Part shown: positions 4,088 through 29,289 of the stretch, one piece after another | Numbering within the stretch: the stretch's first letter is position 1 | How the letters are laid out: each line of letters starts with the position of its first letter | Virus record (IMG/VR): IMGVR_UViG_2778261535_000013 | Span: 1-43,950 of that record | Length of the DNA: 43,950 bases | Source: a virus | Taxonomy: Duplodnaviria; Heunggongvirae; Uroviricota; Caudoviricetes | Reading direction: 5' to 3' (one strand) | Made by a program: the position numbers and the translations under genes | Notes under the pieces: generated by a model | Seen by the model: the letters and a program-made list of their open reading frames with translations, nothing else | The model's database searches: none | Told to the model about the DNA's origin: nothing

Positions 4088-4533
4088 TTACTTAAGACCT
4101 CATCAATAGCCTGATTCATTCGCTGTATGGCAATCTGTGCTGCCAGTTCCTCTGTCGTATCGAAAGCCGGGCGAATGAACGGATGCGCGGGCATGTTTAC
4201 CGTTCCCAGCTCCACAAAGCGCCAGTAAAACGCATTTCGGGGATCACTGGCTTTCATGCTGTTATCACTGTTTCCGGTTCGCAGGTTCCGTCCACGAATG
4301 TGGACACCCGAGATAATTTCCCCCCGACGCTTTGAACGCTGAGTGAGAACAACCACATTTTTCTTCAGTTTCCCGGTTCGCTCCGGCGCACGTTCAACAA
4401 CTGCATCCCGCATAACTTCAGCACCGGCACGGGTGGCATCGCGCAGTACCTTATTGTTTTCTGCCCTGCTGAGCGTCTCCAGATCCCGTGCAATATCCGC
4501 CAGACCTGAAAAATCAAGACTGAAATCCATCAC
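4084..4533 (-). CDS. HK97 gp10-family tail component
   Basis: 149 aa; sequence features (…GTVNMPAHPFIRPAFD…) and position match the HK97 gp10 family. Confidence 0.65.
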   Translation of the reverse strand: MMDFSLDFSGLADIARDLETLSRAENNKVLRDATRAGAEVMRDAVVERAPERTGKLKKNVVVLTQRSKRRGEIISGVHIRGRNLRTGNSDNSMKASDPRNAFYWRFVELGTVNMPAHPFIRPAFDTTEELAAQIAIQRMNQAIDEVLSK

Positions 4534-4868
4534 ACATTCCCCTTCTGAGAACAGAGTATCTCAAGCCGTGTGGCACGGGCATCCGGTATCGGCGGACCGT
4601 CTATACTCAGAATCGCGCCTTTGAATGCACCAGTCAGCACTTTCAGACATGAAGTTGCTGTCACATCTCGCCGGAATCTCATCCAGACCTTCACTGTAGC
4701 CTGAGCAGTTTCTGCACCTCCGGATATTCTCTCCCTGCCACTGATTCCCTTAACTTCTGCCCATATGGTTGCCCCCTCCGTCATTGTTTCCACAGGGTGC
4801 CCTGACGGAGACCGAACGGTGGTGGCATTCAGAATAACCACACGATCACGTAATCTTCCTGCCTGCAT
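4530..4868 (-). CDS. head closure / head-tail joining protein
   Basis: 112 aa, N-terminus MQAGRLRDRVVIL… typical of head-tail joining proteins; located after the gp6-like connector. Confidence 0.65.
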   Translation of the reverse strand: MQAGRLRDRVVILNATTVRSPSGHPVETMTEGATIWAEVKGISGRERISGGAETAQATVKVWMRFRRDVTATSCLKVLTGAFKGAILSIDGPPIPDARATRLEILCSQKGNV

Positions 4869-8713: not shown

Positions 8714-9450
8714 TTAAAGCGAGCGGATGCCCACGCTGACCAGATGTTCAGACAGATCCGGCTCCGGTTCACCACCATTGACCAGCATCCGGCTCATTGC
8801 TGTAAACATCGCAACAGGGCCGTCGATTTTGGCTTCCGGCGTGGATTTATTCGGGAAGATGTTGTCGTTTTTGTCCGGTTTTACCGTAACGTTAGACATC
8901 ATCCAGTTCATGACCGGATGATTGCTGTGATGGAAACGCCCGGCATAGACCAGTGATTCCGTTTCCTTCATGGCCTCTGACAGATTGCGAACCGTCTGCG
9001 GAACCTCCACCAGCGGTATCCCTTCTTCAGCCAGTGCCAGGCTGAACTGCATCGCGCTCCACGGGTCAAATCCCAGTTCCCTGAGGTTTTCACCACCAAT
9101 CCATTCCAGTAAGTCACTTTTTATCTGAGCATGATCGATAACATCACCATCCGTCAGAATCAGCTTATCCATCTCCGCCCACTTCCGGTAAAGTTCTGCC
9201 TGCTGCCGCGAGCATCGTTCCAGCCGTCCTTCCGGAAGCCAGAATTTAAAATCGGCATGAACATGCCCGTTATCCGTTCGCCAGAGTTTTGCCGCCGCAC
9301 AGATATCAATCTTATGAGCAAGGTCAACGCCGACCCACATGGGATACGTTTTCAGCTCATGTCGTGGGGCAATGTATTCGCACTTCTCCCACTTAATCAT
9401 GTCCATCCAGGCAGACTCTGCTGTTACCCACACATTCATGTGTTTGGTAA
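8714..9450 (-). pseudogene. terL: terminase large subunit, C-terminal (nuclease-domain) fragment of an interrupted gene
   Basis: 241 aa ORF begins …TKHMNVWVTAESAWMDM…; the frame is open upstream only to the insertion junction at 9450; it continues the N-terminal fragment at 24089-25116 when the insert is removed. Confidence 0.8.
9444..9450. repeat. att core copy (TTGGTAA) at left junction of the inserted element
   Basis: identical 7-mer at 24089-24095; joining left flank plus core plus right flank restores the terL reading frame. Confidence 0.6.
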
Positions 9451-9525
9451 GAATATTTCAAGTTTTTTAAAATCACCTGTATATCAATCGTTTAACATGA
9501 AAAAACAGTCTTTATAAATCATCAA

Positions 9526-9546
9526 GCAATACACAGCGCAATACAC
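9526..9546. repeat. GCAATACACAGCGCAATACAC, candidate integrase arm-type site (left arm)
   Basis: near-identical 21-mer (one mismatch) at 23938-23958 just inside the opposite end of the element. Confidence 0.4.
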
Positions 9547-9731
9547 GTATCTGTATTGTTTTAATGCTGATACACACCGTTTTTTGATACAGTGATTCGA
9601 CCTACCATCGCGAAGAATTTTTTATTTCTTGTGTGTAACAATCTGACGAGGTGAGCACTCAAAGAGATAAGAGGCAGTAGAAATTTCGATCCCCCCTGAA
9701 TGCAATTTTTCGTATATATATACAAAACAGC

Positions 9732-9885
9732 GCGGGTTATGCGGGTTAGCGGGTTATCTTCGCGTGCTAAGCATTTTTTACTCTTTAATATCAATAAGTT
9801 AAAAAAACAACGTATTTAAATATCAGCCAGAATATAACCCGCAAGACATTCAAAATAACCCGCAAACACCCCTCAAATAACCCGC
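9732..9885. repeat. iteron cluster A: three tandem GCGGGTTA(T/G) copies, an AT-rich spacer, and three inverted ATAACCCGC copies
   Basis: direct reading of the sequence; the same 9-mer recurs at 17572-17694. Confidence 0.55.
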
Positions 9886-9966
9886 AAAAACATCCCTGAA
9901 AGTGGGCGCTGGTAATACTGAAAATTTATTCCATTAAATGAGCATTGTCCTCTCTCATCCATTCCG

Positions 9967-11628
9967 TTACACACCATCAAACGCCGCAAGCCGCTCTTTG
10001 TGGCTGTCGCTCATATCGAATGCAAATTCCTCATGCTCTGCCTGGAATGTGCCAAACGCCATCAGCGCCGCAACGCTCGGGTCTATCTTGTTGGATGATT
10101 TTTTCTTGTTCGGCTTGATATTGGCGTTCGCGTCACTCTGCATCACAACATTACTCATTGACCAGGCCAACACCGGATCACCACGATGCACAATCACCTT
10201 CCGGTTAACAAAAACTTCGAACGATTTCGCCGCCGGACTGAAACGAAGATATGTTTGCGGGAACGGCTCCACCTCAAATCCTGCTCCCTGTAGCTGCGTC
10301 CTCAGGTGCGTGGCGTTCCATGTATCGAAGCCCACCAGCCTGATATTGAAATTCTCTGCATCCGCCATGATGTCATCACGGATACGGTCATAATCAATGC
10401 AGTCACCCGGTGTTGTGCGTATCCAGCCCGCCTTTACCCACTGGCGATAGATGGCGCGGTTTTTATTGGCGGGATTCTGTAGCTGAAATTCCGGCAGATA
10501 GTGACGGGAAACCAGCATAATCTTTTTACCGACCGGGAAGGCATAGCACACGCTGGAAATATCGCTGGTTGATGATAAGTCCAGCCCCGCGTAGCACTCC
10601 TGCCCGTATAAATCCGCCTCCGCGAACGTTCCGGCACACTCCGCCCATGCACCGTTACCCATCCACGGCGTAGCCCCCTGACACCAGATATTGAATCGCT
10701 TGGTGAGCATTTCCACCCACTGCGACGGAATACCCCGCGCTTTCTGGATGGTTGAGGCCAGTTTTTCACGATCGACGGAAACATCGATATTGGGATTCGC
10801 CTTTATCCACATCGCCGGATCGTCAACCTCGCTTTCATCATCCAGCTCGTAAATCAGCACGAACATGGATTCGTTCACCTCTTCACCATCCAGTATCTGG
10901 CAGCAATAGTCGTAGTGTTGTTTACAGGCTGAAACAACGTTGCTCCCCGATGTGGTGATGGCAAATAATACCCCCTCTGGACGCGCCCCCATTCCCAGTT
11001 CAAGCGCGGAATAAACCCCGTTGTCAGGGTGCAGGTGATATTCATCCACAATGGCAAGACTCGGGTTTTTCCCCTCAATGGTTGCCGCTTTTGCTGCCAG
11101 TGGCGTTAACAGGCTGTTGGTTTTCGGGTGTATCACCTTGTGCGCCTGAATATTTACCCGCTTTCGTAACGGTCGGGATAAAAGGCACATCTGACGCGCA
11201 TCATCAAACACGATCCGCGCCTGATCACGACTCACGGCGGCGGTGTAAATATCCTGCTGCCCGTTTTCCATAACCAGAAACCAGTTAGCTAGGATAGCGG
11301 CGACCGTGGATTTGGCATTTTTTCGCGGTACTTCAATGAATGCGCTGGTGTATTTGCGCCGTCCGGTGGCCTTAACCTTAAAGCCCAGGATGCAGGAAAA
11401 GGCGAACTGCTGCCACGGCTCCAGTTCAATGGGGCTACCGCGCATTGCGCCTTTTACGTGCGGACACACCCTGGAAAAGGCAATAAACCGCTCCACGACC
11501 TCCTGATCGAACGTGTAAAGGGGGTTTTCGAGGTCAGAAAAATATCGTTTAACGGCCTGTTTCAGTCGTTTACAGGCCGTAATTTTGCCGTTTTTTACGC
11601 CTTCTGCGTACTCATGCCAGGCGGTCAA
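9967..11628 (-). CDS. terminase large subunit (element-encoded)
   Basis: 553 aa with ATPase-like N-terminal and nuclease-like C-terminal regions; translationally coupled to the upstream TerS. Confidence 0.9.
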   Translation of the reverse strand: MTAWHEYAEGVKNGKITACKRLKQAVKRYFSDLENPLYTFDQEVVERFIAFSRVCPHVKGAMRGSPIELEPWQQFAFSCILGFKVKATGRRKYTSAFIEVPRKNAKSTVAAILANWFLVMENGQQDIYTAAVSRDQARIVFDDARQMCLLSRPLRKRVNIQAHKVIHPKTNSLLTPLAAKAATIEGKNPSLAIVDEYHLHPDNGVYSALELGMGARPEGVLFAITTSGSNVVSACKQHYDYCCQILDGEEVNESMFVLIYELDDESEVDDPAMWIKANPNIDVSVDREKLASTIQKARGIPSQWVEMLTKRFNIWCQGATPWMGNGAWAECAGTFAEADLYGQECYAGLDLSSTSDISSVCYAFPVGKKIMLVSRHYLPEFQLQNPANKNRAIYRQWVKAGWIRTTPGDCIDYDRIRDDIMADAENFNIRLVGFDTWNATHLRTQLQGAGFEVEPFPQTYLRFSPAAKSFEVFVNRKVIVHRGDPVLAWSMSNVVMQSDANANIKPNKKKSSNKIDPSVAALMAFGTFQAEHEEFAFDMSDSHKERLAAFDGV

Positions 11629-11968
11629 GCTCGTCCTCCTCCTCTGTTTCCGGTGGATTTCTGCGGCGGCTTACCGGGTCAAAACCCAGCAAAGAAGCCA
11701 TTTTGATCATTATTCTTTCCGCGTCAGCCTTTGCGCTCAGGGCGGGGTTTCTGCTCTCGCTGCCCTGACTGTTAACAATGCTGAAGCCGCGCGTCGCAAG
11801 GTCTTCGACGGCTTTGCGGTATATGGAGTAGTTAACGCAATACAGTTCCAGATTGCTCCAGTCGGCGGGGGTAAGGTCTTCCCGCCCGGAAAGCTGGCGC
11901 GATTTTTCCTTCCACTGCCTGACCGCGATTTCATCCAGGTAAGCGGGGGCTTTTGGTGGTCTTGCCAT
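11612..11968 (-). CDS. terminase small subunit, P27 family
   Basis: likely start MARPPKAPAYLDE… at 11968; the ORF track extends further upstream to 12109; directly upstream of TerL. Confidence 0.7.
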   Translation of the reverse strand: MARPPKAPAYLDEIAVRQWKEKSRQLSGREDLTPADWSNLELYCVNYSIYRKAVEDLATRGFSIVNSQGSESRNPALSAKADAERIMIKMASLLGFDPVSRRRNPPETEEEDELDRLA

Positions 11969-12256
11969 GTTCTTTTTTCGCCCAATTATTTTCAAAAAAA
12001 TTCCCGTGCACAAAAATTTGAGGAGGCGGTCGGTGTCCGGCAGGGACGGTTTTGTCCTGAAAACCTCCCCCACCCCCTCTGACGGCCTCACCAGCGATTG
12101 CGAAAACATTCCATGACCTCGCGGTCACGGTCGGTTAATTGCTTCGCTGTGGTGCGTTCTGTGCGCCCTGTCCTGTTGGCTTTGTGCCCTGTCTCCTGTG
12201 TCTTCCATAAGTCACGCTGCCTTATCAGTCCACGTATCAGCCTGTTTTGCTCCTGT

Positions 12257-12697
12257 TCAGTCATCATCGCCATACATCCAGTCGTTACGGTGTGCCGCCC
12301 GTTCTTCCTGCTCGCGATACATGCCCGCCTTACGGTTCGCTTTCGTGGCTGGATCTTCCCGTGTCGTCTTACGGTTGTGGCACGTCTGGCACAATGCCTG
12401 GTGATTCCACTCAGGCCAGAAGAGAACATCACCGCCGCCATTGATGGGAATGATGTGATCCACCACAAGAGCTGGCGTATAAATCCCCTTAGCCAGACAA
12501 CGCACGCATAACGGGTTTTTGCTCAGGTACAGGGCGCGGTATTTGTCCCACTGTCGGGAATACCCGCGCGCGCGGCGGTGTCCCCGTCTGGCATCCTCTG
12601 CACGCCATGCAGCCCGCCTGTGCTCTTCACACTTTCCGGACTTCACGCGCTTATTACAGCCCGGCTCAGTGCAGCGCCTTAATGGTTGCCACGGCAT
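12257..12697 (-). CDS. HNH endonuclease (packaging-associated)
   Basis: 146 aa with Cys-rich N-terminus and VVDHIIP…H…C HNH motif; positioned next to TerS. Confidence 0.8.
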   Translation of the reverse strand: MPWQPLRRCTEPGCNKRVKSGKCEEHRRAAWRAEDARRGHRRARGYSRQWDKYRALYLSKNPLCVRCLAKGIYTPALVVDHIIPINGGGDVLFWPEWNHQALCQTCHNRKTTREDPATKANRKAGMYREQEERAAHRNDWMYGDDD

Positions 12698-12996
12698 CAG
12701 TACACCCCCACATCACGATAAACCGACCAGAGCGCAGAAATAGCCATAGGCAGTTCAGACTGCTCCACAGGTGAAACCGCTTCCCTGTTCTCGTACAGGA
12801 AAGCGATGTACATCAGGCAACCAACACGTATTGCCGGGGTAAATTCCAGCCCGTCTTCAAAACGTTTCCCGATATGCTTCTGGCAGGCTTCCAGCGCCGC
12901 ATCGGTATACATTTTCAGAAGTTCGCCTTCTCCGGAAAAGTCATCAAGGCGAAGATGTGCCCTGACTTCATCAGGTGTAATTTTGTCTTCACTCAT
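12697..12996 (-). CDS. head-tail connector (gp6-like)
   Basis: likely start MSEDKITPDEVRAHLRLDDF… at 12996; similar in pattern to the resident gp6-like protein. Confidence 0.6.
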   Translation of the reverse strand: MSEDKITPDEVRAHLRLDDFSGEGELLKMYTDAALEACQKHIGKRFEDGLEFTPAIRVGCLMYIAFLYENREAVSPVEQSELPMAISALWSVYRDVGVY

Positions 12997-14203
12997 CTTT
13001 TTCACCTTTAATTTCCACAGTCTGCTTCCATGCCTGGCTGAACTCGTCGCCACCTTCACGCGGCGGCATTCCCTCACGCTCACGGGCTTCGTTCGGATTC
13101 ATGATCCCGTTCTTAATCCCTTTCTCATACGTGGCGTAACGTTCAGTAGGTGTGGCGCGCAGTAAATCGGCTGAATCAAACTCAACCAGATAACGGGTAC
13201 CAGGTACGGGAGAAGCCACCAGCAAAGCGGCCTTGATTTGCTGTTCGAAGTTCGCCAGCCACGGACGCATTGTCATAGTCAGAAACGCGCGGCTTGCCTC
13301 ACTGAAATTGCTGTAGGTGCTGTTGCTGTATTCCTGCAGAAAAATCGGCGACACGTTGAACATCCGGGCGATGTCTTCAATGGAGAAGCGACGGGAGGCC
13401 AGCCATTCCGCATCCTGGTTACTCATCCCCAGTTGCTTGTAATCCATGCCCCCTTCAAGGATTGGCGTTTTTCCGGCATTTTTCGCCCCCTTGTAGCGTT
13501 CCAGTGCGTCTAATGCCTGTTTACCTTTCACGCCGTCCAGCCATTCGCCTGACGTGATAATCCCTGCCGCCATCATGCCATCTTTCATAATGCTGGCTCC
13601 GTGACGCTGTTGAGCAAGGCCAAGCCCCAGCGCCTCACGGCAAATCGTGATGGGGGAGCGTCCCAGAAAGCCATCATCCGAGGCATAGCGGAGATGCAGA
13701 ACTTCTTCCTGTAAATACGTGCGCACCGTTCCTGTACAGGGTTCGGTGATGGTATAGCGGTATTTGTGTGCGCCTGTGCGTTCCGGTACAACACACCCCG
13801 GCGCATAAGGATGAAGTGATTTTGGCTGACCGTCCCGCCCCCATTCAATAACCGCATAGGCGTTACCGTTCAGCAGGCAGTGACGCATCATTGTGCGTTT
13901 AAACTGGTAAGGTGTCTGGCACGAATTAGGCTGCTCATTCAGCAGAATATCTACCGGATGACTGTCCAGCCATTCCCGCGCCTCCCTGCCCTTGTCATTA
14001 CGTACCAGATACAGATAACACGGCATCGTGGCCACCGCCTCAGCGATGACGGAAACCGCGTTCATCACTGCGGGCAATGATTCAGCCGTCCCGGCAGAAA
14101 CATATTCTCCGGATCCGGTATTCGGTACGCCGGACAGCACCAGAAAATCATCAATGGACAGGTTACGTTGCTCGCTTTTTTTACGACTAAAAGGCCACCA
14201 CAT
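12989..14203 (-). CDS. portal protein, HK97 family
   Basis: likely start MWWPFSRKK… at 14203, one nucleotide after the protease stop; the ORF track extends upstream to 14422 across the protease gene. Confidence 0.8.
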   Translation of the reverse strand: MWWPFSRKKSEQRNLSIDDFLVLSGVPNTGSGEYVSAGTAESLPAVMNAVSVIAEAVATMPCYLYLVRNDKGREAREWLDSHPVDILLNEQPNSCQTPYQFKRTMMRHCLLNGNAYAVIEWGRDGQPKSLHPYAPGCVVPERTGAHKYRYTITEPCTGTVRTYLQEEVLHLRYASDDGFLGRSPITICREALGLGLAQQRHGASIMKDGMMAAGIITSGEWLDGVKGKQALDALERYKGAKNAGKTPILEGGMDYKQLGMSNQDAEWLASRRFSIEDIARMFNVSPIFLQEYSNSTYSNFSEASRAFLTMTMRPWLANFEQQIKAALLVASPVPGTRYLVEFDSADLLRATPTERYATYEKGIKNGIMNPNEAREREGMPPREGGDEFSQAWKQTVEIKGEKDE

Positions 14204-14204
14204 A

Positions 14205-14765
14205 TCACAACCCCGCCAGCTCTGCCCAGCGATGACGATTATTTCCTGCCGGGCGTAATTCAGGGTGCTGTGCAAACAACGAACGGTGGGCAATCTCCAC
14301 GCCAGATTCGGGATAAGCAGGCATCGACGTGATCGTGATTTCCCTGAGTTCTGCAGCGGTAACAGTACGCAGATACGGTTTTTGCGCGATATTCCACTCT
14401 TCGCATAATGCGCGAAAGCCAAAGCTCATCCCTGTAATGTCGCCACGCTCCACCAGCGTAAGCACATCTTTTCCAAGCTGGGTATCAGGCGGTGTCAGTT
14501 CAAAACGTAGCCCGGTGTTGTCCTCAGTCAGTACCAGAGTGCCGGATTTGGTGCGCCCCAGCAGTTGGGTATAGTCATGCTCATACAGGCAGCGCACATC
14601 ATTACCCGCCGCCAGATAGTCAGCAAAAGCCCCCGGCGTGAACTGTTCGCGGAATTCGTCCCAGATAATTTCTGAAAGGCTGTTCCAGCGAACGGCATAC
14701 CCCACCAGCTTTTTATTGCTGGCGGTCAGTTCAGATGTGCGGATTTCAAAATCGGTGTTTTTCAT
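14205..14765 (-). CDS. prohead protease, HK97 family
   Basis: 186 aa; sequence pattern of HK97 prohead proteases; lies between capsid and portal genes. Confidence 0.85.
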   Translation of the reverse strand: MKNTDFEIRTSELTASNKKLVGYAVRWNSLSEIIWDEFREQFTPGAFADYLAAGNDVRCLYEHDYTQLLGRTKSGTLVLTEDNTGLRFELTPPDTQLGKDVLTLVERGDITGMSFGFRALCEEWNIAQKPYLRTVTAAELREITITSMPAYPESGVEIAHRSLFAQHPELRPAGNNRHRWAELAGL

Positions 14766-14819
14766 CGGTGTACTCCATAAAGCTGAAAAAGGAGGCCGCA
14801 GCCTCCTCCTTACTCATGA

Positions 14820-15989
14820 CTAGCCAGCTTTCATTTCCAGAATTTTGATGGCGTTTGAATCCACCACACCACCGCCCAGATATTTATCCGTGTGGACCTT
14901 GTAGAATCCGGGTTCAGTAATGTTGTCCGGTCGGGTGCGAATCCCTGTTACATGATCAACGATGAAATAACCACGACTGAAATCGCCAACCGCTAGCGGT
15001 GCTTTTCCTGCGCCGATGTCCGGCATGGACTCCAGGCAGAAAACAGGACGACCAAGCAACATATCCGGCGCACCTTCTTTAAGGCTGTCGCGCCAGATAT
15101 AATCGCCATTCTCATTTTTCAGCTTCTGTAGTGTCCCTGCCGTGCCCGAGTTCATCACCCAGACGGCATTTTTGCGGTATTTCGCTTTCAGCTTGTAGAG
15201 AATGTCGATCAGTTCGTCCGCTGTAATGGCGGTTCCACTTGCCGCTACCACTTTTTCAATGGTGCCAAAAGCGCGGGTTTTGTCACTGGTCGCCGCACGG
15301 GTGTAAGCCATGAAGCCTTTCGGCTTGCCGTTACCGTCGCCATTAACAAAATCATCCTCTTCGGTGCTGGCGAACGTGTCGGCAATTTCGGAGGATAACC
15401 AGCCCAAAATATCCACCTCTGAAAAATCCAGGATTTCCTGCGTGGTTTTCGGGTAGGCGTAGATCTGATTCAGCTTGATGGTTACACGTTCAATTTTCGG
15501 GGTGTTGGTTTCACTACGTGCGCTGCCTTCTGTGCCTCGTCCTACAGTTGCGCCGCCAGTGGAAACCAGTTTCTGAAACTCATTTGATTTTGCGGTCTTC
15601 ACGGTCGCGATCACGCGCATAACACTGTCATCCTGTAGCTGGCGCATGACTTCGCGATCAAGCTCAGGAATTACGGTATATCCGCCATCCCTGCCGCTGT
15701 CAGTGCTGGTGGACAGTGATCGCACATCTCCGGTTACGATGTAGTTACGCAATTCATCAGATGATAATTTCTGGATGCCCGTTCCTGGCTTGCTGCGTTC
15801 TTCATCAGCCACAGACTCGAGGCGGTAAATTTCTGTGTCGAGGGAATCGGCTTTTGCACGCAGTTCATCAAACTGTTTGCCCTCGTCATCGTTCAGGCTG
15901 CGGTTTTCACTGTCGGCTTTTTCCAGCAGGGATCGCATCTGGTTTTTCAGGGCGGTTTTTTGCTGGCGGAGTTCGATTAATTTCTTCAT
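14820..15989 (-). CDS. major capsid protein, HK97 family
   Basis: 389 aa; N-terminal coiled-coil region then capsid-fold sequence closely paralleling the resident capsid protein (…GDGNGKPKGF…). Confidence 0.9.
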   Translation of the reverse strand: MKKLIELRQQKTALKNQMRSLLEKADSENRSLNDDEGKQFDELRAKADSLDTEIYRLESVADEERSKPGTGIQKLSSDELRNYIVTGDVRSLSTSTDSGRDGGYTVIPELDREVMRQLQDDSVMRVIATVKTAKSNEFQKLVSTGGATVGRGTEGSARSETNTPKIERVTIKLNQIYAYPKTTQEILDFSEVDILGWLSSEIADTFASTEEDDFVNGDGNGKPKGFMAYTRAATSDKTRAFGTIEKVVAASGTAITADELIDILYKLKAKYRKNAVWVMNSGTAGTLQKLKNENGDYIWRDSLKEGAPDMLLGRPVFCLESMPDIGAGKAPLAVGDFSRGYFIVDHVTGIRTRPDNITEPGFYKVHTDKYLGGGVVDSNAIKILEMKAG

Positions 15990-16226
15990 GAAGGTTTTCT
16001 CGTATTGGTTAAGATTCAGGACGTGAAACCAACACGGAGGGAGCGCCGCCCGACACTCTCGGCATCTCGCAGATCAACCCGGCATCGCGCAGGGGGTCAG
16101 GCGGCATTGTGGCGGCTCACGTCTGAGTGCCACACGCCAACATATACATAAAAATCAGTATGTAAACATCAGCCAGAATCACCGAACAACCTGGAACAAC
16201 CACGAACAAATAATTTACAAAACCTG

Positions 16227-16255
16227 AAAAAAAGACCTGGAGAAAATCCAGGCCT
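16227..16255 (-). terminator. intrinsic terminator after the replication/accessory operon
   Basis: minus-strand stem CCTGGA/TCCAGG with loop, followed by TTTTTTT. Confidence 0.5.
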
Positions 16256-16263
16256 TTATCGCT

Positions 16264-16512
16264 TTATTGTTTCACTGGATCCCGCATTCTGCGTCTTATT
16301 TTCCACAGATATTCGATCATCGCTTCCACCTGCTCACGATTGGTTGCGAAAATTTCCCCGGTCAGTGAGCTGCGCAGAAAATCATGATGATCCACAACAA
16401 ACAACGCATCGGAAGAAAGCAGACGGCGATATTTTTTTGCTGTCGTGGTTTCCAGATCATCAAAACCATGAAACTTTTTATGTTGCTGGACTTCTTCAAA
16501 TGTCACTGGCAT
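16264..16512 (-). CDS. hypothetical protein
   Basis: 82 aa ORF overlapping the ProQ/FinO-like gene stop; no motif. Confidence 0.35.
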   Translation of the reverse strand: MPVTFEEVQQHKKFHGFDDLETTTAKKYRRLLSSDALFVVDHHDFLRSSLTGEIFATNREQVEAMIEYLWKIRRRMRDPVKQ

Positions 16513-17045
16513 GTATCCCCCTTTGCTGCCCGGCGCTGGCGCTTGTGCTTCTCATTCAGCGCCATCAGCCGCGTTTCTGCCTCCTGCTGTTCCTGTGGTG
16601 TCACTTCCCCACATGGCTGGCCTTTCAGGTCGTATCGTACCCCACCAGCAACCAGGGCGCGGTAATAGCGCGGAGACTGCGCATAAGATGCCAGCGTCGC
16701 ACGTAATGCCCCCGGCCCGAATGCCAGCCCCCTGACGGCGAGATCCTGCATCAGGTCGTCGAATATCCCCACCTTAAGCGGCTTCGGTGCTTCCCTGTTG
16801 AATAAGTCAGGCCACATCTCAGTGAGGCGGTTAACGCGCCTGCGGTTTTTGCGCTGGCGTTTGGTCATATGCCGCCACGGTGTCACCCCTGTGGGCTGCC
16901 CTTTGCGGCTCTGCTGTGCGTTCTGATTGCCGGGTATCACTTTATGCGCCGATGTGGTTTTATCCCGCTCTTGCGCCGCCTGCGTCGTTTTCTGCGGCGT
17001 GCCGTAAATGCCTTTCGGTTTTCGGTTAATGGTCAGCTTTGTCAT
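16503..17045 (-). CDS. ProQ/FinO-domain RNA-binding protein
   Basis: C-terminal region …WPDLFNREAPKPLKVGIFDDLMQDL…YAQSPRYYRAL…RYDLKGQPCGEVTPQE… aligns by eye with the ProQ N-terminal FinO domain; basic N-terminus. Confidence 0.7.
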   Translation of the reverse strand: MTKLTINRKPKGIYGTPQKTTQAAQERDKTTSAHKVIPGNQNAQQSRKGQPTGVTPWRHMTKRQRKNRRRVNRLTEMWPDLFNREAPKPLKVGIFDDLMQDLAVRGLAFGPGALRATLASYAQSPRYYRALVAGGVRYDLKGQPCGEVTPQEQQEAETRLMALNEKHKRQRRAAKGDTCQ

Positions 17046-17081
17046 GCCTTCCCCTGTAATTACTCTGTTCGCTGTTGTGAA

Positions 17082-17507
17082 TTAAAACTGTATGTTATCC
17101 CCGTACAGGTCATCGTGCTGGCCTGTCTGTTGTTTTGCCCTGTTCAGTGCGTCAGTGGCCTGCCCCTGTTGGCCTTTTTTGCCGCCCGGTCGCGCCGTTC
17201 TCGCACTGATTACGCTGTCTGCGATGACCTGCCAGCCCTGCCGCGTTTCGCCGTTCTGCCCTGTCCACTGGCTTACCTGCATGTTACCCGCCACGTTCAC
17301 CAGTTCGCCTTTGCGGTGTTTTGCCAGTGCGTCGGCCTGTCTGCCAAACGCCAGGACGGATAACCACATCGTCGCCGTTCCGTCATCTGCCTGGCTGCAT
17401 GGCAGGGGAACCGCCATACTCGCCATCGCCATTTGTGTTCCCTTGCTGGTGGTCTTTAACTGCGGGTCAGCCACCAGCCGCCCGTAAGCCGCTATCTGTG
17501 CTGTCAT
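17082..17507 (-). CDS. ssb: single-stranded DNA-binding protein
   Basis: 141 aa; N-terminal OB-fold-like sequence, Gly/Gln-rich linker and acidic C-terminal tail DDLYGDNIQF. Confidence 0.7.
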   Translation of the reverse strand: MTAQIAAYGRLVADPQLKTTSKGTQMAMASMAVPLPCSQADDGTATMWLSVLAFGRQADALAKHRKGELVNVAGNMQVSQWTGQNGETRQGWQVIADSVISARTARPGGKKGQQGQATDALNRAKQQTGQHDDLYGDNIQF

Positions 17508-17571
17508 GCTGTCTGCTCTCCGGTTTTAACGTTGATGGTTACGCTTGTTTACACCCTTACGGTGAAATTCT

Positions 17572-17694
17572 GCGGGTTATAATCGCACTTTTGCGGGTTA
17601 TAACTGCCGTTTTGCGGGTTACGTGCGGGTTATTGATTTCCTTTTTATTCATACAGTTAATGCACTTATATACATGATAACCCGCATAACCCGC
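17572..17694. repeat. iteron cluster B: four GCGGGTTA(T/C) copies, an AT-rich spacer, and two inverted ATAACCCGC copies; candidate origin
   Basis: direct reading; lies immediately downstream of the replication gene. Confidence 0.6.
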
Positions 17695-17717
17695 AACTTT
17701 TCACCTCACACAGGGGG

Positions 17718-19841
17718 TTAATCTTCTGCCTCAGGCTGGAACATCAGCACGTAAAAAACATGCTGCTTCCCCCCAATTTTGCCGAGCGCCTTTTTCTTGT
17801 AACGGCGATCGTTACCCGCTTCCAGCATTCCGGCAGCACTCAACGCGCGGGCAAAGTGAGACGGATTAAATCCCTGTGCTATCTCACCCTCAAATACATG
17901 CGGGAACGTGTAAAAACGGAACTCGTCATCTTCGTTTCTGATACTCCCCTTTCTGTATCCGGCAAGTTCTTTAATCGGTAAATCACGCTCGTCGGTATTG
18001 GGCCACGGAAGGTATCTGCTGAATCCGAACGACGCTAAAAAAGCTTCTGCCTGTTCAACCATCTGTTTAAATTCCCTGTTACCCGTGCCGAACTCCTTCA
18101 CCCAGGCATTAAAATTATGCTGTATGGCATCGCGGCATTCCTGCTCATCCCAGCCAGTAACATGACCTGAAAGCACAAGCGCGGCCTCCAGTATGGCAAA
18201 TCGCTCCCCCACACGGTGAACCTGTTCGCCGTAGCTCTCCGGTATCAGGTTGCGCCACCGCTCACGGCATGTCCTTACCGTGTCCTTTGCCTCCTGCTGG
18301 TGTTCTGCCAGCCATTTAACCCACTCACGACCCGCCGCCCCGTGATTTTCTGTCCAGGCATCCTTTAACGCGTCTGCGTGCGCCTTTCCGGTGCTGTATT
18401 CGTGAAATTGCGTGGCTTTTTCCATCGGAACGTTAAGCAGGCGGACAAGCTGCCCCGCTTTGACTTTTATCCCCTCCGTTTTGAGGAATGTCTCAACGTC
18501 CATTTCTCCGGTGCTGATTGCCACCGTGCGCCAGTGTTTGATCTCCCTGTTGCCGCCGTCCTTCGCCCCCTGTAATTTCCCCGAACCGTTAAACAGCGTA
18601 TAGGCTGACGTGGACACCTCCCGCGCGTTTCCGGCCTGGCCTATTTCATCCAGGGGTAAAAGCCCGTCATTGTGTGCCTCTGCTTCGTTGGCGATACCTA
18701 ACGCTGTGCCGTACCAGGTCAGCCGCTGCGCGTCCGGCTCTCCCCATAAACTTGATGCGATGTTCTGTGTGGTGGTTTTCCCTGCCGATGACTGTTCGAA
18801 AAGATGTACCCCGAAGCCGTCAGCGCCCACCAGCCCGATTAATGGTGCGGATAACGATACCGCCACACCCAGCATCATGGACGGATTACCACCAGCCAGC
18901 CGCGCAACGGTATCGCGCCAGCCCTCCGCCGTTCCTGCCACGGAATAGCCATTAACAGCAGCCGTTTTTCCGGTAAACAGGACTGGCTTTTCGCAATCAC
19001 CAATGACCGAACCGTCCGGCATGATGTACGCGCCAAAATGCCAGCCCGTTGTTGTGCTTAACTGCCATTCCTCATGGCTTCCGCTTAACTGCATCCAGTC
19101 AGCCAGGATAGCCCTGTATTTACCGTTGGTTGTTACGTTCAGTCCGTGGTCTTTCAGCAACCGCCAGCCGTCACGGTCGCCAATGCCACCGCACGGAACC
19201 GCCATTGTGATGACTTCATGGTTTGCTAATTTTTTCCAGCGCATCACGCGGTAATGCTCTTTACCGATTGTCCCCGTTCCCAGTAGTTCAAGCGGGGAAC
19301 ATAACCACGTCTCAGGCCGGATAATTTCGCCTGACTGCTTATCCACTTTTGGCGTTACCCAGAAAACACCATCGGCGCGACTTTCAACGCGGGGCTTTAA
19401 TTCATCATCGCCCTGGATTTCTGTGATTTTTTTCTTTAAGGGCAACACCAGACTTTCCCCGCGCTCGTATTCGTCTTTGAGGCGAGGCAACTGGTCGGAT
19501 AAATCCGCCGGGCTGATGTCAGTTATCCCCGCGTATTCGTATACGGTCTTCACGCCAGCCACAGCCAGCAACGTGACGATCTGTGTAAGGCTACGTTCAG
19601 TGATGTGCCCTGCGCGGTAAACACGCACACACTGACGGCTATCATCAATAATTTGATAACCGGTAATATCTTTCAGGTGTTCATCTGACAGAACGACAGG
19701 CGGCACATTGTCGGCGGCAATATGCTTACCTGCCCATTCCTGCCACTCTTTCGCATGGCTCCACGCATCACTACCCGCAAAGATGATAACCTCCGTCATT
19801 TTGTCGGCTGGCTGGTGCTTTAAGTTTGGTGCGCGCTTCAT
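17718..19841 (-). CDS. replication protein, primase-helicase-like, with Walker A motif
   Basis: 707 aa; GxxxxGKT (…EQSSAGKTTT…); size and position beside the iterons match PICI/P4-type replication proteins. Confidence 0.65.
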   Translation of the reverse strand: MKRAPNLKHQPADKMTEVIIFAGSDAWSHAKEWQEWAGKHIAADNVPPVVLSDEHLKDITGYQIIDDSRQCVRVYRAGHITERSLTQIVTLLAVAGVKTVYEYAGITDISPADLSDQLPRLKDEYERGESLVLPLKKKITEIQGDDELKPRVESRADGVFWVTPKVDKQSGEIIRPETWLCSPLELLGTGTIGKEHYRVMRWKKLANHEVITMAVPCGGIGDRDGWRLLKDHGLNVTTNGKYRAILADWMQLSGSHEEWQLSTTTGWHFGAYIMPDGSVIGDCEKPVLFTGKTAAVNGYSVAGTAEGWRDTVARLAGGNPSMMLGVAVSLSAPLIGLVGADGFGVHLFEQSSAGKTTTQNIASSLWGEPDAQRLTWYGTALGIANEAEAHNDGLLPLDEIGQAGNAREVSTSAYTLFNGSGKLQGAKDGGNREIKHWRTVAISTGEMDVETFLKTEGIKVKAGQLVRLLNVPMEKATQFHEYSTGKAHADALKDAWTENHGAAGREWVKWLAEHQQEAKDTVRTCRERWRNLIPESYGEQVHRVGERFAILEAALVLSGHVTGWDEQECRDAIQHNFNAWVKEFGTGNREFKQMVEQAEAFLASFGFSRYLPWPNTDERDLPIKELAGYRKGSIRNEDDEFRFYTFPHVFEGEIAQGFNPSHFARALSAAGMLEAGNDRRYKKKALGKIGGKQHVFYVLMFQPEAED

Positions 19842-20152
19842 TTTGCCTTTCCCCGTTCACGAATAATTTCACGTACTGCCTTAATGCGTTCCATTCCTGT
19901 AACGCGCATGATTCTGTCGATGTCGCTTAATTCTGCTGGTGGTGCTTTACTTACCAAGGTGAACTCCCTGTCAAAGCGCATATGTGACGACACGCAGGGA
20001 TGCGCATAACCTTCGCGGATATAGGTCACACGAAAATCATCGACGGTTTTGATCGTTATCGTGCTGCCGTATTTATCCTGGAAAATATCGCCGGGGCGGA
20101 TTTCAGGCCGAGCGGGGCCGCTGGCAGTAAAGCCAGAATTTTTCTTTTTCAT
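19838..20152 (-). CDS. hypothetical protein
   Basis: 104 aa ORF, stop overlaps the replication gene start. Confidence 0.4.
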   Translation of the reverse strand: MKKKNSGFTASGPARPEIRPGDIFQDKYGSTITIKTVDDFRVTYIREGYAHPCVSSHMRFDREFTLVSKAPPAELSDIDRIMRVTGMERIKAVREIIRERGKAK

Positions 20153-20157
20153 GTTTT

Positions 20158-20406
20158 TTACTCCAGAGGCAGCTTTTTAGCGGCGAGCTCAATATCAGAT
20201 GTCAGAGAAACCTGTGTATTTGCCAGGTCTAACAACAAAGAAATAAGAATTTCTTCTCTGCTATCGGATTTATCGGTGCTAAGGCTGTTCATCCACATAT
20301 TGACGACTTCCCTGATTTTTTTCGCAGAGTGCAGGGCTTCAAATGCCAGGTCTTCAATATCATGTTTATTTCGCATAATCGCCCCCGCCATTTTCACAAT
20401 CAGCAA
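20158..20406 (-). CDS. hypothetical protein
   Basis: 82 aa ORF; true start uncertain. Confidence 0.35.
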   Translation of the reverse strand: MLIVKMAGAIMRNKHDIEDLAFEALHSAKKIREVVNMWMNSLSTDKSDSREEILISLLLDLANTQVSLTSDIELAAKKLPLE

Positions 20407-20611
20407 TCAGGATGGCTTTTGCCTCATTCAGCGCCGTATCAGCACTAAATTGCATGACAGCCAGTGAGTGAGGAACGAAAGCCCCGGCATATTCTGTTTC
20501 GCTGGTGGCGTGCTTATGCGCCTTGTCTGCGATAACAGAAATATCAATCAGCGCGTGCATCAGCGTTCTGATGGCTTCGGCGGCTGCGTCCGGACGGGTG
20601 TTATTACACAT
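20366..20611 (-). CDS. hypothetical protein
   Basis: 81 aa ORF; its ATG overlaps the stop of the upstream 67-aa ORF (ATGTGTAA) with AGGAGG RBS. Confidence 0.4.
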   Translation of the reverse strand: MCNNTRPDAAAEAIRTLMHALIDISVIADKAHKHATSETEYAGAFVPHSLAVMQFSADTALNEAKAILIADCENGGGDYAK

Positions 20612-20807
20612 GGCGTACCTCCTGACGAATACGGGCAGTAAATACCATCACGCAGCCGGCCGGGGATTGCTGGCGGGCTTCCTGTTCGCTGGTGGCCTCA
20701 ATGGTAATCACGCGCGGCTTAGCCGTGCTCAGGGCGATAAAACGCCAGATGTATTTATTCAGGTTGTGCGAGTCCCGCCCTTTCGGGTGTGTGGTATGAT
20801 TTAACAT
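20604..20807 (-). CDS. hypothetical small protein (67 aa), first gene of the leftward operon
   Basis: ATG at 20807 with RBS; corresponds to the C-terminal 67 codons of a long low-complexity ORF-track entry that is otherwise implausible. Confidence 0.4.
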   Translation of the reverse strand: MLNHTTHPKGRDSHNLNKYIWRFIALSTAKPRVITIEATSEQEARQQSPAGCVMVFTARIRQEVRHV

Positions 20808-20904
20808 AGCTACCTCGATACTTTCGCTATCGTTGGTGGTTAGAAGCCCCGTTACTGCTCCAACAGTGCGGGGTTTCGTCGTTTCTGCACCTTGCATAAA
20901 CAAG

Positions 20905-20985
20905 GTGTAAGACACAATGTAAAGCAGCAGTGTCTTACACGTCAATCCTTCAAAATAATTTTTTTTCGTGTATATTGTCTTACAC
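20905..20985. promoter_or_regulatory. divergent promoter region with three copies of operator GTGTAAGACAC / GTGTCTTACAC
   Basis: inverted pair at 20905-20915 and 20930-20940, third copy at 20976-20985 overlapping a TATATT -10-like hexamer about 30 nt upstream of the RHH gene. Confidence 0.5.
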
Positions 20986-21006
20986 CAAAAACATAAGGAG
21001 TTAGAC

Positions 21007-21186
21007 ATGGCAACAGGTCCAAAGAATGCAAAATCACAATCTGTAACTGCACGTATTGCCCATGAAATTATTGAAGGCATGGAAAAAGTGAAAGAAGAAG
21101 GCGAAAGTACAGGGCAGTTTATAAGCGCAGCCATGCGTGGCGAGATCAAACGCCGCCAGCGCCGCAAGGCCAAAGAGCAGGAGTAA
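21007..21186 (+). CDS. small ribbon-helix-helix-like regulator
   Basis: 59 aa from ATG 21007 (MATGPKNAKSQSVTARIAHEIIEGMEK…) with GGAG RBS; sequence pattern compatible with RHH/CopG-type DNA-binding proteins. Confidence 0.45.
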   Translation: MATGPKNAKSQSVTARIAHEIIEGMEKVKEEGESTGQFISAAMRGEIKRRQRRKAKEQE

Positions 21187-21243
21187 CCATCACCAGCGCC
21201 GTGGTGAGAGTAACTACGGCGCATTGCTATGCAGGTGCTTACC

Positions 21244-21423
21244 ATGAACGATAAAGAGTTAAAAAAAACACCACCACAAACACGGAAAGGACAGCGCAAA
21301 AAGATAGCGCATGAGCATGAATCAGAAAGATTCGCCCCCTGTGCGTTTGCTCTTGAGAAATTCCTTAAGGAGCACAAGAAAAAGCTATCATTGCAAACCT
21401 GGGAACGAACCGAATCTGACTGA
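21244..21423 (+). CDS. hypothetical small basic protein
   Basis: 59 aa from MNDKELKK… downstream of the RHH gene; no motif. Confidence 0.3.
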   Translation: MNDKELKKTPPQTRKGQRKKIAHEHESERFAPCAFALEKFLKEHKKKLSLQTWERTESD

Positions 21424-21516
21424 TCAAATTGCCCACCAGCCAGCAAATCGCTATGATGTTCGGGCTTATGTTTAGTGTTTTCCCATTGGCGACCGCCCCC
21501 GGTCGCCTTTGTTTTG

Positions 21517-22095
21517 TCACTGAATGCAGTTGTCAAAGTAAAACTCAGGCTGATATTCACGTATCAGCCTTTTTTCTTCTTCCTCCAGTTCACGCTTTTT
21601 GCGCTTACAGGCCTGTAGCTCCCTCCCCTTCTCACTGGCACTTATTTGATATTGCTCTTTACGGCGGGAAAAATCCTGCAATGCGCCCCACGGGATACCA
21701 TAAGCCCCTGTCTTTCTGATACCTGGTATCACATTCCTGAATACCCAGTTACTGAAACGATGAGCAAATGTGCCAGGCGTCGTTGCTTTGCGGCTGCGGG
21801 CTATTAGTTTGTAGAAACCTGACTCAGAGATAATGCTCATATTCTGATTTCCTCCGGGGGTGTAAGTTAAATTTACTCCCTTTTCATCATCATCAAGCAT
21901 CTGCAACGCCGTACGCGAATTGGTCAGTTCCAGCGCAGCGCAAACATCCTTTGCAACAAACCACGGATCGCCGTTCAGATACACCACGCGAACGTTCACA
22001 CCATCAAAGCGCAGAACGACCAGATCACGAATATCACAGAATTTTTTCACATGACGTGCGTCACCCTTGCCCGTCACGGCAATATTTTTATTCAT
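21517..22095 (-). CDS. Bro-N domain protein (antirepressor-like)
   Basis: …GDPWFVAKDVCAALELTNSRTALQMLDDDEK… matches the conserved Bro-N core. Confidence 0.7.
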   Translation of the reverse strand: MNKNIAVTGKGDARHVKKFCDIRDLVVLRFDGVNVRVVYLNGDPWFVAKDVCAALELTNSRTALQMLDDDEKGVNLTYTPGGNQNMSIISESGFYKLIARSRKATTPGTFAHRFSNWVFRNVIPGIRKTGAYGIPWGALQDFSRRKEQYQISASEKGRELQACKRKKRELEEEEKRLIREYQPEFYFDNCIQ

Positions 22096-22152
22096 CGCTT
22101 TCTACCTCACATACAAAAAACCCCGCATTGCGTGGTGCGGGGTTGTCGGTAA

Positions 22153-22431
22153 TTACTTATTGGCGTTTTTGTATGGGCTGTTTACTTCCTTTACTCCTGG
22201 CGGATGCATAACCCACCAGAGCACATCAGAGAGCAACCAGGAAACAGACACTTTCCCTAAATGAGCACGAGCAGGAAATGCTCCCTCCTGTTCAAGTACC
22301 CAACGTCTGCTTCTTGAAAGCCCGGTACGATTGGCACACTCATGTTCGCGTATACGGCGATCATACGGTTCGCCATGCTCTTTCAGAATCTGAATGCGTT
22401 CTTCGGGTGTAGGATAAATAAATTTTTGCAT
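22153..22431 (-). CDS. AlpA-family regulator (excisionase-like)
   Basis: likely start MQKFIYPTPEE… at 22431; …TGLSRSRRWVLEQEGAFPARAHLGKVSVSWLLSDV… matches the AlpA HTH pattern. Confidence 0.65.
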   Translation of the reverse strand: MQKFIYPTPEERIQILKEHGEPYDRRIREHECANRTGLSRSRRWVLEQEGAFPARAHLGKVSVSWLLSDVLWWVMHPPGVKEVNSPYKNANK

Positions 22432-22494
22432 AAAAATATCACCTATAAAAAAACCCGCCAAAAGACGGGTTGATTATATCTCATTTAATTTAGC

Positions 22495-22728
22495 TCAGGG
22501 TTTCCATTCACCCTTTACCCATTCCAGCACCTCAGATAAGCGCCAGACTTTTGTTTGTGGGCCAATACATATTTTTCGTGGAAATTTTCCTTCCTTTTCA
22601 AGTAACGATCTGTGTCTCCTGCCAAGAGCAGTTAACCATGCACATTCATCTTCCTTAATCATCCTGTCGATTGTTTTATCATTTTCAAGTTCTTCACGCG
22701 TAACTATTTGAATCATTACCATCACCAC
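22495..22728 (-). CDS. AlpA-family regulator (second copy)
   Basis: …LLEKEGKFPRKICIGPQTKVWRLSEVLEWV… matches the AlpA pattern; immediately downstream of the integrase gene. Confidence 0.6.
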   Translation of the reverse strand: MVMVMIQIVTREELENDKTIDRMIKEDECAWLTALGRRHRSLLEKEGKFPRKICIGPQTKVWRLSEVLEWVKGEWKP

Positions 22729-23917: not shown

Positions 23918-23937
23918 GTGATTTATAACCCGTTTTT

Positions 23938-23958
23938 GCAATACACAGTGCAATACAC
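23938..23958. repeat. GCAATACACAGTGCAATACAC, candidate integrase arm-type site (right arm)
   Basis: matches 9526-9546 with one mismatch; 20-40 nt upstream of the int start codon. Confidence 0.4.
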
Positions 23959-24088
23959 AAATGATGAAAACAGCCAGAACCTTCCAGAAAAAACAAAAAC
24001 GACGAACAAGAAAAAATCTTTTTCTTTCATTTGGTTACTAAAAAAATCAGGACAGGCCGCACTGTTGTTACGGCGTGATGTTACGTTC

Positions 24089-24095
24089 TTGGTAA
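24089..24095. repeat. att core copy (TTGGTAA) at right junction of the inserted element
   Basis: identical to 9444-9450. Confidence 0.6.
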
Positions 24096-25116: not shown

Positions 25117-25598
25117 CAGTCTCTCGCTTTTAAAAGTTCCGCCAGCGGATCAACATCATCCGGTCCGGCGGTATTTACTTTCGCCCGGCTTGCCGGTGAC
25201 ATACCAAACTCTGCAAGCATCGCCCGGATCCGCTTCCAGGCATCCGCTTTCATCGCAGCAGCCGGGTGTGCCTTAATCAGCACATCACCGTTCTGCGTTT
25301 CCGTGCGGTAGGTATAACCCTCAGCATCAAGTGTTTCGCAGTGATGCCGGTATTCGGTGTAGGCTTCCACCAGTAACTCGAGTGCACGCGCATCAAGCTG
25401 AGAAATGATCCCTTCCGCATTCAGTTCTTCCGCCATTCGCCTGAACCAGTACTTCCCCTGCGACCCTAAATGTTGCGGAATTTTAGGGAGACCTTTTTCA
25501 TCCTTTTTAGCGGTTTTTTTTGGGTCTTTAACGGGGCGCTTTGAGGGGTTGCCTCGTATCAAATGCAGGCGTGGCGGGGTTTTCGGGGGTCCTGACAT
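25116..25598 (-). CDS. terminase small subunit, P27 family
   Basis: 160 aa, basic N-terminus …LIRGNPSKRP…; stop overlaps the terL start. Confidence 0.75.
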   Translation of the reverse strand: MSGPPKTPPRLHLIRGNPSKRPVKDPKKTAKKDEKGLPKIPQHLGSQGKYWFRRMAEELNAEGIISQLDARALELLVEAYTEYRHHCETLDAEGYTYRTETQNGDVLIKAHPAAAMKADAWKRIRAMLAEFGMSPASRAKVNTAGPDDVDPLAELLKARD

Positions 25599-26097: not shown

Positions 26098-26139
26098 AGA
26101 ATTTCGCTCCTCTAAAAAATATTCTGCTCTCACCGTCGG

Positions 26140-29135: not shown

Positions 29136-29210
<75 letters not shown>

Positions 29211-29213
29211 ATA

Positions 29214-29289
<76 letters not shown>

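Follow-up and report, generated by a model that had tools for sequence, protein, structure and literature searches.

A probable capsid-forming satellite without a head-closure gene, embedded in terL of an HK97-like prophage

Two groups of phage-inducible chromosomal islands (PICIs) resemble the locus described here most closely. EcCIEDL933, the prototype of the capsid-forming PICIs (cf-PICIs), has been characterized experimentally, and mutation of its small gene 1792 severely reduces transfer (Alqurainy et al., bioRxiv 10.1101/2022.09.08.507074). The helper-embedded PICIs (HE-PICIs) are an integrase clade targeting 14 sites in prophage late genes, and one of their groups, A:Terminase_1:246, with Eco1645.15.A_Terminase_1_246 as an example, has the att identity block 'ttaccaa' and a span of 14,645 bp (Tommasini, Mageeney & Williams 2023, PMC10111431). 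The experimentally studied HE-PICI, Eco567.11capE (11capE), for which excision was examined, is assumed to rely on its helper for cos machinery and capsid proteins (PMC10111431). The DNA analysed here, referred to as the window, is a stretch of 43,950 nucleotides from a tailed virus (Caudoviricetes; IMG/VR record IMGVR_UViG_2778261535_000013). A block of head and packaging genes at positions 9967-15989 is best read as the morphogenesis and packaging operon of a cf-PICI of the EcCIEDL933 lineage, 14,645 bp from core to core, which would also be an HE-PICI embedded in terL of an HK97-like prophage. We put the probability of this reading at roughly 85%.

The block consists of seven intact genes, all on the minus strand, transcribed in the order capsid, prohead protease, portal, gp6-like connector, HNH endonuclease, TerS, and TerL, with profile matches for the gene products (Table 1). 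This is the arrangement that had been proposed from the letters and open reading frames alone (the original prediction), and the upstream genes named there, comprising an integrase, AlpA genes, a replication protein with iterons, and a single-strand DNA-binding protein (SSB), are likewise all present. Two features go beyond that prediction, a small 1792-like ORF separating HNH from terS and the absence of the second head-tail gene known from EcCIEDL933. The connector is the sole head-tail joining gene of the element and scores 20.0 bits against the Pfam family PF05135, slightly under the cutoff of 21.2. A 477-aa portal ORF with a start at 14422 is an over-extension. In the mechanically extended TerS ORF of 165 aa, the first 41 residues match phrog_32378 (function unassigned; E 4e-12), and the stretch between the 1792-like ORF and terS (11969-12109, minus strand) is the expected place for a cos site of the HK97 type. 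Pfam and PHROG profile searches of the element ORFs matched no tail or lysis family, in agreement with the RefSeq annotation of the near-identical copy in Escherichia coli EC416; the predicted absence of such genes thus holds, and tail genes belonging to the element, a finding that had been named in advance as speaking against a satellite, were not encountered. The element head proteins had further been described as diverged paralogues of the resident ones, which is borne out by amino acid identities between satellite and resident prophage of 28-33% for TerL, 33% for portal, 37% for capsid, and 44% for HNH, with no resident counterpart of the satellite protease, TerS, or connector matching at E 1e-3.

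Comparison with the published cf-PICI showed the element to be collinear with EcCIEDL933, with packaging proteins 57-93% identical at the amino acid level, as expected from the assignment to this family in the original prediction. The EDL933 region that constitutes EcCIEDL933 is 99.99% identical over 15,461 bp to the Sakai prophage-like element Sp7, located between roxA and phoQ; no paper linking EcCIEDL933 with Sakai Sp7 was found, and the identity was settled by direct comparison. The window element and EcCIEDL933 share, in order, int, alpA, DUF4222, DUF927 primase, iteron origin, SSB, an accessory gene, capsid, protease, portal, connector, HNH, the small ORF 1792, terS, and terL. They also have the same GCGGGTTAT iteron and the same absence of tail and lysis genes, and the ORFs of the window element are intact and equal in length to their EcCIEDL933 homologues. 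The two elements are similar in size (14.6 kb for the window element, 15.5 kb for EcCIEDL933). They differ in target, EcCIEDL933 occupying the roxA/phoQ intergenic site of the chromosome and the window element a prophage terL; an integrase only 42% identical to that of EcCIEDL933 is consistent with the different target site. Unlike EcCIEDL933, the window element has two AlpA genes and a Bro-N gene, one iteron sub-cluster at its far end, and no ORF past terL, and it is without the EcCIEDL933 head-closure/adaptor gene (ECs_1593). The general traits of cf-PICIs are otherwise present, namely a size within about 10-18 kb, a terminal integrase, an AlpA regulator, an own replication module (DUF927 primase, SSB, and GCGGGTTAT iterons), capsid, protease, and portal in the proteobacterial order, an own hnh-terS-terL set, and packaging genes distant from those of phages (best full-size phage capsid 37%), whereas only the connector is found of the two head-tail joining genes, adaptor and connector.

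These identities bear on an explanation in which an ordinary HE-PICI recently captured its head and packaging genes from the helper, mainly as a back-up for the interrupted terL and not for making capsids of its own. 'Late gene capture' of helper clusters, favoured near the integration site and giving the duplicated genes a back-up role, has been proposed by Tommasini et al. (PMC10111431), and the element indeed brings a terL of its own to the terL that it interrupts. A recent origin from the resident head genes was nevertheless rejected, because the identity to these genes is 28-44% (three undetected) as against 57-93% to the chromosomal EcCIEDL933. The same cassette is also found in a non-embedded ST648 cf-PICI between rcnR and thiM, and the packaging systems of EcCIEDL933 and of phage proved mutually exclusive (bioRxiv 10.1101/2022.09.08.507074), which makes recent capture very improbable.

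The boundaries of the element were placed by a three-way comparison that included phage phi467, whose terL is uninterrupted, and consist of a TTACCAA core at either end (Table 1). The split in terL of the helper falls at codon ~340, within the nuclease domain (residues 283-563), and no replacement sequence is provided, as the N-terminal fragment continues into unrelated DNA. Both halves of terL align at 98% to the uninterrupted phi467 gene and overlap by a few bases. Excision in silico at one core copy yields a TerL of 585 aa with no stop codon that reads ...ARVNFFTKHMNVW... over the junction, identical to phi467. The attB of the repaired terL is predicted to be GTGAATTTTTTTACCAAACACATGAATG and the attP junction of the satellite ...ATATTCTTACCAAGAACGTAAC..., in which the element end and TTACCAA are followed by GAACGTAAC.... 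In the interrupted state the gene leaves a minus-strand ORF of 397 aa (23923-25116), containing the ATPase domain, the nuclease start, and a 57-aa tail from satellite DNA, and another of 241 aa (8714-9439, minus strand), which has its own ATG and holds the remaining nuclease domain.

The genes with key satellite roles share the minus-strand orientation of the helper late operon (terS, terL, portal, and tail), and as the element lies co-oriented inside terL of an HK97-like lambdoid prophage it was assigned to the HE-PICI group A:Terminase_1:246. Its att block 'ttaccaa', its length of 14,645 bp, and its target, the cognate of lambda gene A, are those of this group, its int-proximal flank is nearly identical to the published attL sequences, and the layout in four zones (Integration, Bro, Replication, and Late) is common to both. 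The doubled TGTATTGC motif is present in two co-oriented copies, found at these two places only in the window, at 79 and 134 bp from the core; the HE-PICI-specific doubled motif tgTGTATTGCantgTGTATTGCa is published as lying 81+/-2 bp from the attP centre on its upstream side and 132+/-2 bp from it on the downstream side (PMC10111431). Position within a prophage late gene, the identity block, restoration of the target in silico, and recurrence of the site in independent genomes are further HE-PICI traits found here. With no difference demonstrated, the window element appears to be a further copy of the catalogued group. As in 11capE, the target gene is disrupted without replacement sequence and a homologue of that gene is part of the element; 11capE, in contrast, is 11 kb long, targets the capsid gene E, and is without terS, whereas the window element has a complete head and terminase set.

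Among 5426 complete E. coli genomes, the int-side junction was found in 36 and the other junction in 34, whereas terL of this type is uninterrupted in about 900. Partial junction matches that were sampled covered the terL half of the query only in every case. The same nested arrangement is present in E. coli EC416, 042, and Evo1, and 32 genomes have 80% or more of the element at a single place. The EC416 copy is about 99.97-100% identical apart from an IS256-like IS1414 and a 3-bp indel. IS1414 lies in the regulatory zone of the EC416 satellite (at a place corresponding to window ~21339-21349; positions 26948-28259 of the EC416 locus, L001), the 3-bp indel falls within the part corresponding to window 1-21349, and the window has neither, so that it stems from a close relative of EC416 and not from EC416 as such.

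A block of this kind could also have come from another complete HK97-like prophage, nested or in tandem, that decayed and had its tail and lysis genes deleted. The Pfam families and the broadly phage-like arrangement are the same as those of the resident head and packaging genes, and the location is inside a prophage. A remnant would, however, not account for exact 7-bp core repeats with exact restoration of the target ORF, for the recurrence of the element in one place in the 32 genomes together with a catalogued entry of the identical 14,645 bp, or for ORFs that are all intact and of the lengths seen in EcCIEDL933, and the int-AlpA-Bro-primase-SSB backbone is of the PICI type rather than an early/late phage layout. 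The second finding named in advance as contradicting a satellite, synteny with a complete phage, was absent among 50,697 phage records. Only four of these records have a capsid more than 60% identical to that of the element, all other phage matches being at most 37%, and no complete phage carries the block, the status of the fourth record being unchecked. Three of the four are short, namely LR881103.1 (vB_KppS-Ant, 16.5 kb), OR544139.1 (Pasteurella Pmp8, 15.3 kb), and a 3.8-kb fragment; the vB_KppS-Ant and Pmp8 records are of satellite size, with a capsid of the cf-PICI type 60-76% identical to that of the window. The fourth, PQ569648.1, is a 106.5-kb Klebsiella phage record in which a cf-PICI-type capsid block lies at the very end (102-106 kb), possibly owing to an assembly join. 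A second degraded prophage was rejected on the combined grounds of the phage records, the att repeats, and the PICI backbone, and is extremely unlikely.

Two head-tail genes lie between portal and HNH in EcCIEDL933, as they do in the sister element of Evo1, and encode a 112-aa head-closure protein (the 'adaptor' of the cf-PICI papers) and the gp6-like connector. In the window element the stop codon of portal overlaps the start of the connector, which is 57-58% identical to the connectors of EcCIEDL933 and Evo1, and the head-closure gene is absent, a 466-bp segment of the Evo1 element being replaced by 121 bp. No head-closure homologue was found in the element on either strand (tblastn, best E 0.16), and the adaptor is not fused to the connector either. 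The adaptor-less portal/connector junction is present in 143 of the 5426 genomes, at 89-100% identity and at several chromosomal sites. In ST648 (NZ_CP008697.1; positions 8821-23068 of locus L006) the same adaptor-less packaging cassette belongs to the non-embedded cf-PICI between thiM and rcnR, whose integrase and primase family differ from those of the window element, indicating that the cassette moves between satellite backbones. The junction is therefore not a private deletion. As 9-11 of the 11 core components suffice for a cfPICI in SatelliteFinder, and 10 are present in 459 of the 969 elements detected, the element is considered a reduced 10-of-11 variant, being neither a non-member of the family nor, in the absence of the adaptor of the canonical eight-gene packaging module, of the full type.

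Within the window, a head-closure gene is found in the helper only. Its product is 62% identical to the adaptor of the Evo1 element and 49% identical to that of EcCIEDL933, in contrast to 25-38% identity between satellite and helper for the other head proteins. Adaptor and connector set which tails a cf-PICI capsid accepts, and otherwise identical cf-PICIs swap their adaptor/connector genes (He et al., bioRxiv 10.1101/2025.02.11.637232). This swapping and the likeness of the helper protein to cf-PICI adaptors make use of the helper head-closure protein plausible, and with a connector present but no head-closure gene, the adaptor-less variant probably finishes its heads with it. A bolder and tentative proposal, which we regard as possible but doubtful, is that the satellite depends on the helper head-closure protein, and that embedding in terL guarantees a compatible donor and delays packaging of the helper but not production of its tails. 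If true, this would be a tighter, cis-enforced dependence than the picture drawn from EcCIEDL933, in which the satellite 'only steals tails, at no cost'. The searched papers contained neither a link of this kind between the cf-PICI and helper-embedded concepts nor a discussion of an adaptor-less cassette in a terL-embedded element.

Gene content and order, boundaries, orientation, arm motifs, restoration of terL on excision in silico, and recurrence of the junctions are observed directly in the sequence, and the course of events set out here is modelled by homology on EcCIEDL933 and 11capE. SOS induction would derepress the helper, leading to helper excision and replication with the satellite carried along. 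Late transcription antiterminated by Q would then cross the lysis genes of the helper, followed by its HNH and terS genes and the 5' portion of terL, and reach int and alpA of the satellite. AlpA and Int would excise the satellite and thereby repair the helper terL, and the satellite would replicate from its iteron origin with its own DUF927 primase and SSB. Capsid, protease, and portal of the satellite may form small heads, into which the satellite HNH, TerS, and TerL would package satellite DNA only, and siphovirus tails of the helper, probably with the helper head-closure protein, would complete the particles. As long as the satellite is still integrated, the helper would make tails but could not package its own DNA, which would suit a satellite that needs tails only.

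Several points weigh against this reading. The small capsids of EcCIEDL933, with element DNA only and with helper tails, were established by experiment, whereas the window element is known from its sequence alone, and for 11capE, the only HE-PICI studied experimentally, virions were not recovered (PMC10111431). The cf-PICI search criteria specify attachment sites never taken by prophages and did not anticipate an embedded site; here the attachment site is a codon of a prophage gene that no prophage occupies, and the criterion was written for chromosomal sites. Strong terminator-like hairpins on the coding strand (22471-22452 and 22144-22119, minus strand), one 3' of each AlpA gene, would cut int-alpA off from the remaining element unless read through, although a Q-modified polymerase would be expected to ignore them. 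The window covers only part of the helper tail operon, whose completeness is judged from the near-identical EC416 prophage. Finally, all packaging-module genes of EcCIEDL933 but 1792 are needed for transfer (bioRxiv 10.1101/2022.09.08.507074), so that a copy without the adaptor could fail in transfer if the helper does not supply the missing function.

The last of these points leads to a further explanation, in which a cf-PICI derivative can no longer be transmitted, having lost the adaptor and become stranded in a cryptic prophage that it permanently inactivates. The adaptor is present in EcCIEDL933 and the Evo1 element and has no homologue here, and many HE-PICI helpers look truncated (Tommasini et al., PMC10111431). 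Against a dead derivative, the adaptor-less junction joins gene to gene cleanly, the stop of one overlapping the start of the next, the remaining genes are intact, and the spread of the junction over the 143 genomes and several sites is the pattern of a maintained variant and not of a one-off deletion. The frequency of cfPICIs with 10 of 11 components and the 49-62% identity of the helper head-closure protein to cf-PICI adaptors argue in the same direction, and loss of transmissibility is accordingly judged unlikely.

Table 1. Positions of satellite and helper features in the window, with amino acid identities to EcCIEDL933
Feature	Position	Strand	Profile match or remark	Identity to EcCIEDL933
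Helper head-closure protein	4530-4868	-	PF05521, E 1.7e-20	
Helper terL C-terminal fragment	8714-9443	-	remaining nuclease domain	
att core TTACCAA, far end from int	9444-9450	-	at helper terL C-terminal fragment	
Doubled arm-type motif GTGTATTGCgcTGTGTATTGC	9526-9546	-	79 bp from core centre	
Second iteron cluster, downstream of element terL	9732-9885		three GCGGGTTAT-type repeats per strand flanking AT-rich centre	
TerL, 553 aa	9967-11628	-	PF03354 + PF20441, PHROG 9; ATPase + nuclease domains	93%
TerS (P27/Terminase_4 family)	11612-11968	-	PF05119, E 4e-23	88%
Small conserved ORF, 61 aa, homologue of EcCIEDL933 gene 1792 (Z1792-like)	12088-12273	-	PHROG 3173; between HNH and terS	81%
HNH endonuclease, packaging cofactor	12257-12697	-	PF01844, PHROG 144	84%
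gp6-like head-tail connector (Ad1 type)	12697-12996	-	PHROG 40 'head-tail adaptor Ad1', E 9.5e-29	57%
Portal, 404 aa	12989-14203	-	PF04860, E 5e-93	81%
Prohead serine protease (S78)	14205-14765	-	PF04586, E 5e-46	63%
Major capsid protein, HK97 fold, 389 aa	14820-15989	-	PF05065, E 7.5e-72	63%
Conserved 82-aa ORF, accessory slot	16264-16512	-	PHROG 1957	
ProQ/FinO-domain protein, accessory slot	16503-17045	-	PF04352, E 9e-25; between SSB and capsid	
SSB	17082-17507	-	PF00436	67%
Iteron cluster beside primase gene, presumed ori	17572-17694		four GCGGGTTAT-type repeats, AT-rich spacer, two inverted copies	
DUF927 primase/replication protein, 707 aa	17718-19841	-	PF06048, E 6e-46; PHROG 1139 'DNA primase', E 3e-173	83%
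Regulatory zone	19838-22095	mainly -	DUF4222, two small ORFs, plus-strand YlcI/YnfO-like ORF, Bro-N	
DUF4222 gene	19838-20152	-		
YlcI/YnfO-like ORF	20968-21186	+	PHROG 949	
Bro-N anti-repressor-like protein	21517-22095	-	regulatory zone	
Second AlpA-family gene	22153-22431	-	PF05930; PHROG 2790	
AlpA-family gene	22495-22716	-	PF05930; PHROG 2790 'excisionase and transcriptional regulator'	
Tyrosine integrase with Arm-DNA-binding domain	22694-23917	-	PF00589 + PF13356	42%
Second copy of doubled arm-type motif	23938-23958	-	134 bp from core centre	
att core TTACCAA, int side	24089-24095	-	at helper terL N-terminal fragment	
Helper terL N-terminal fragment, codons 1 to ~340	24096-25116	-	ATPase domain + nuclease start; 99% aa identity to phi467-type TerL	
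Helper terS	25116-25598	-		
Helper HNH	25747-26133	-		
Helper Q antiterminator	29655-30350			
Helper lambda-type integrase	42261-43379			

The replication module of the element contains the iterons in two places. The window contains 10 exact GCGGGTTAT copies, each lying in one of the two clusters of Table 1, and when one mismatch is allowed 35 matches are obtained as compared with 8.4 expected. In Sp7/EcCIEDL933 the iteron occurs 11 times within one 310-bp region after the primase gene, in contrast to the two separated clusters of the window element, and the terminal cluster of the latter aligns at 79% identity to the EcCIEDL933 ori region. The arrangement looks like a split or relocated origin. 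Separated iteron clusters are reminiscent of ori and crr of P4, which, like the window element, is a satellite of the integrase/AlpA type whose replication protein is of the primase type; genes for capsid, portal, or terminase are absent from P4, which remodels P2 capsids instead. The accessory slot of the window element holds a ProQ/FinO-domain gene, which may represent satellite cargo of the RNA-chaperone type, whereas EcCIEDL933, 042, and Evo1 have a PerC-family regulator in this slot.

The two AlpA genes match PF05930 with E-values of 1.7e-9 and 5.6e-10, and the regulatory zone beside them corresponds to the 'Bro zone' of Tommasini et al. (PMC10111431). A 318-aa ORF with a GTG start at 20604-21560 (minus strand), listed mechanically, is probably no gene, because it overlaps the plus-strand YlcI/YnfO-like ORF and near-identical RefSeq copies annotate small minus-strand Icd-like genes there. 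A scan of the element for sigma-70 promoters gave 14 as compared with 16.8 expected from shuffles, indicating no enrichment, and neither P4-type immunity RNAs (C4/isrK) nor other Rfam families were found in the element at E <= 1.

The resident prophage is HK97-like and lambdoid and is the probable donor of the tails. Its late operon comprises HNH, terS, the split terL, portal, protease, capsid, connector, the head-closure protein, a gp10-like gene, a gp17 tail-completion gene, and the tail tube. The late region also contains four adjacent tRNAs (Gly, Thr, Lys, and Met; 29136-29445), called by both ARAGORN and Rfam, and an 82-nt tRNA-Val(aac) at 28408-28489 (minus strand), which was called by ARAGORN and lies under the gathering score of the Rfam tRNA model. 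The helper further encodes the sok antitoxin RNA of a hok/sok module (32357-32531, minus strand) and the DicF sRNA (38795-38846, plus strand), which are typical of lambdoid prophages of the Qin/Rac type.

The cf-PICI family (2022-2023) and the HE-PICI configuration (2023) are already published, the latter down to the att core, site, and length found here, and with near-identical copies in RefSeq the element itself is to be regarded as known. The HE-PICI study did not use the cf-PICI concept, and it discusses neither the full capsid and packaging module of the terL-embedded elements nor their absent adaptor (PMC10111431). The two unlinked concepts, together with the adaptor-less cassette, are a modest lead and not a discovery. 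What automated pipelines present as duplicated phage genes and two terL pseudogenes would be a self-encapsidating satellite nested in its probable helper, and recognition of the nested element avoids miscounting of prophages and pseudogenes. The resident prophage looks defective because its terL is split, a state that excision of the satellite could repair. The window joins two separate literatures, that of the cf-PICIs, which spread across species by means of foreign tails, and that of the HE-PICIs, which are regulated in cis by their helper. The terL-embedded adaptor-less variant would provide a natural system for asking how much of the head-tail interface a satellite must encode, and may also bear on whether embedding is costly to the helper.

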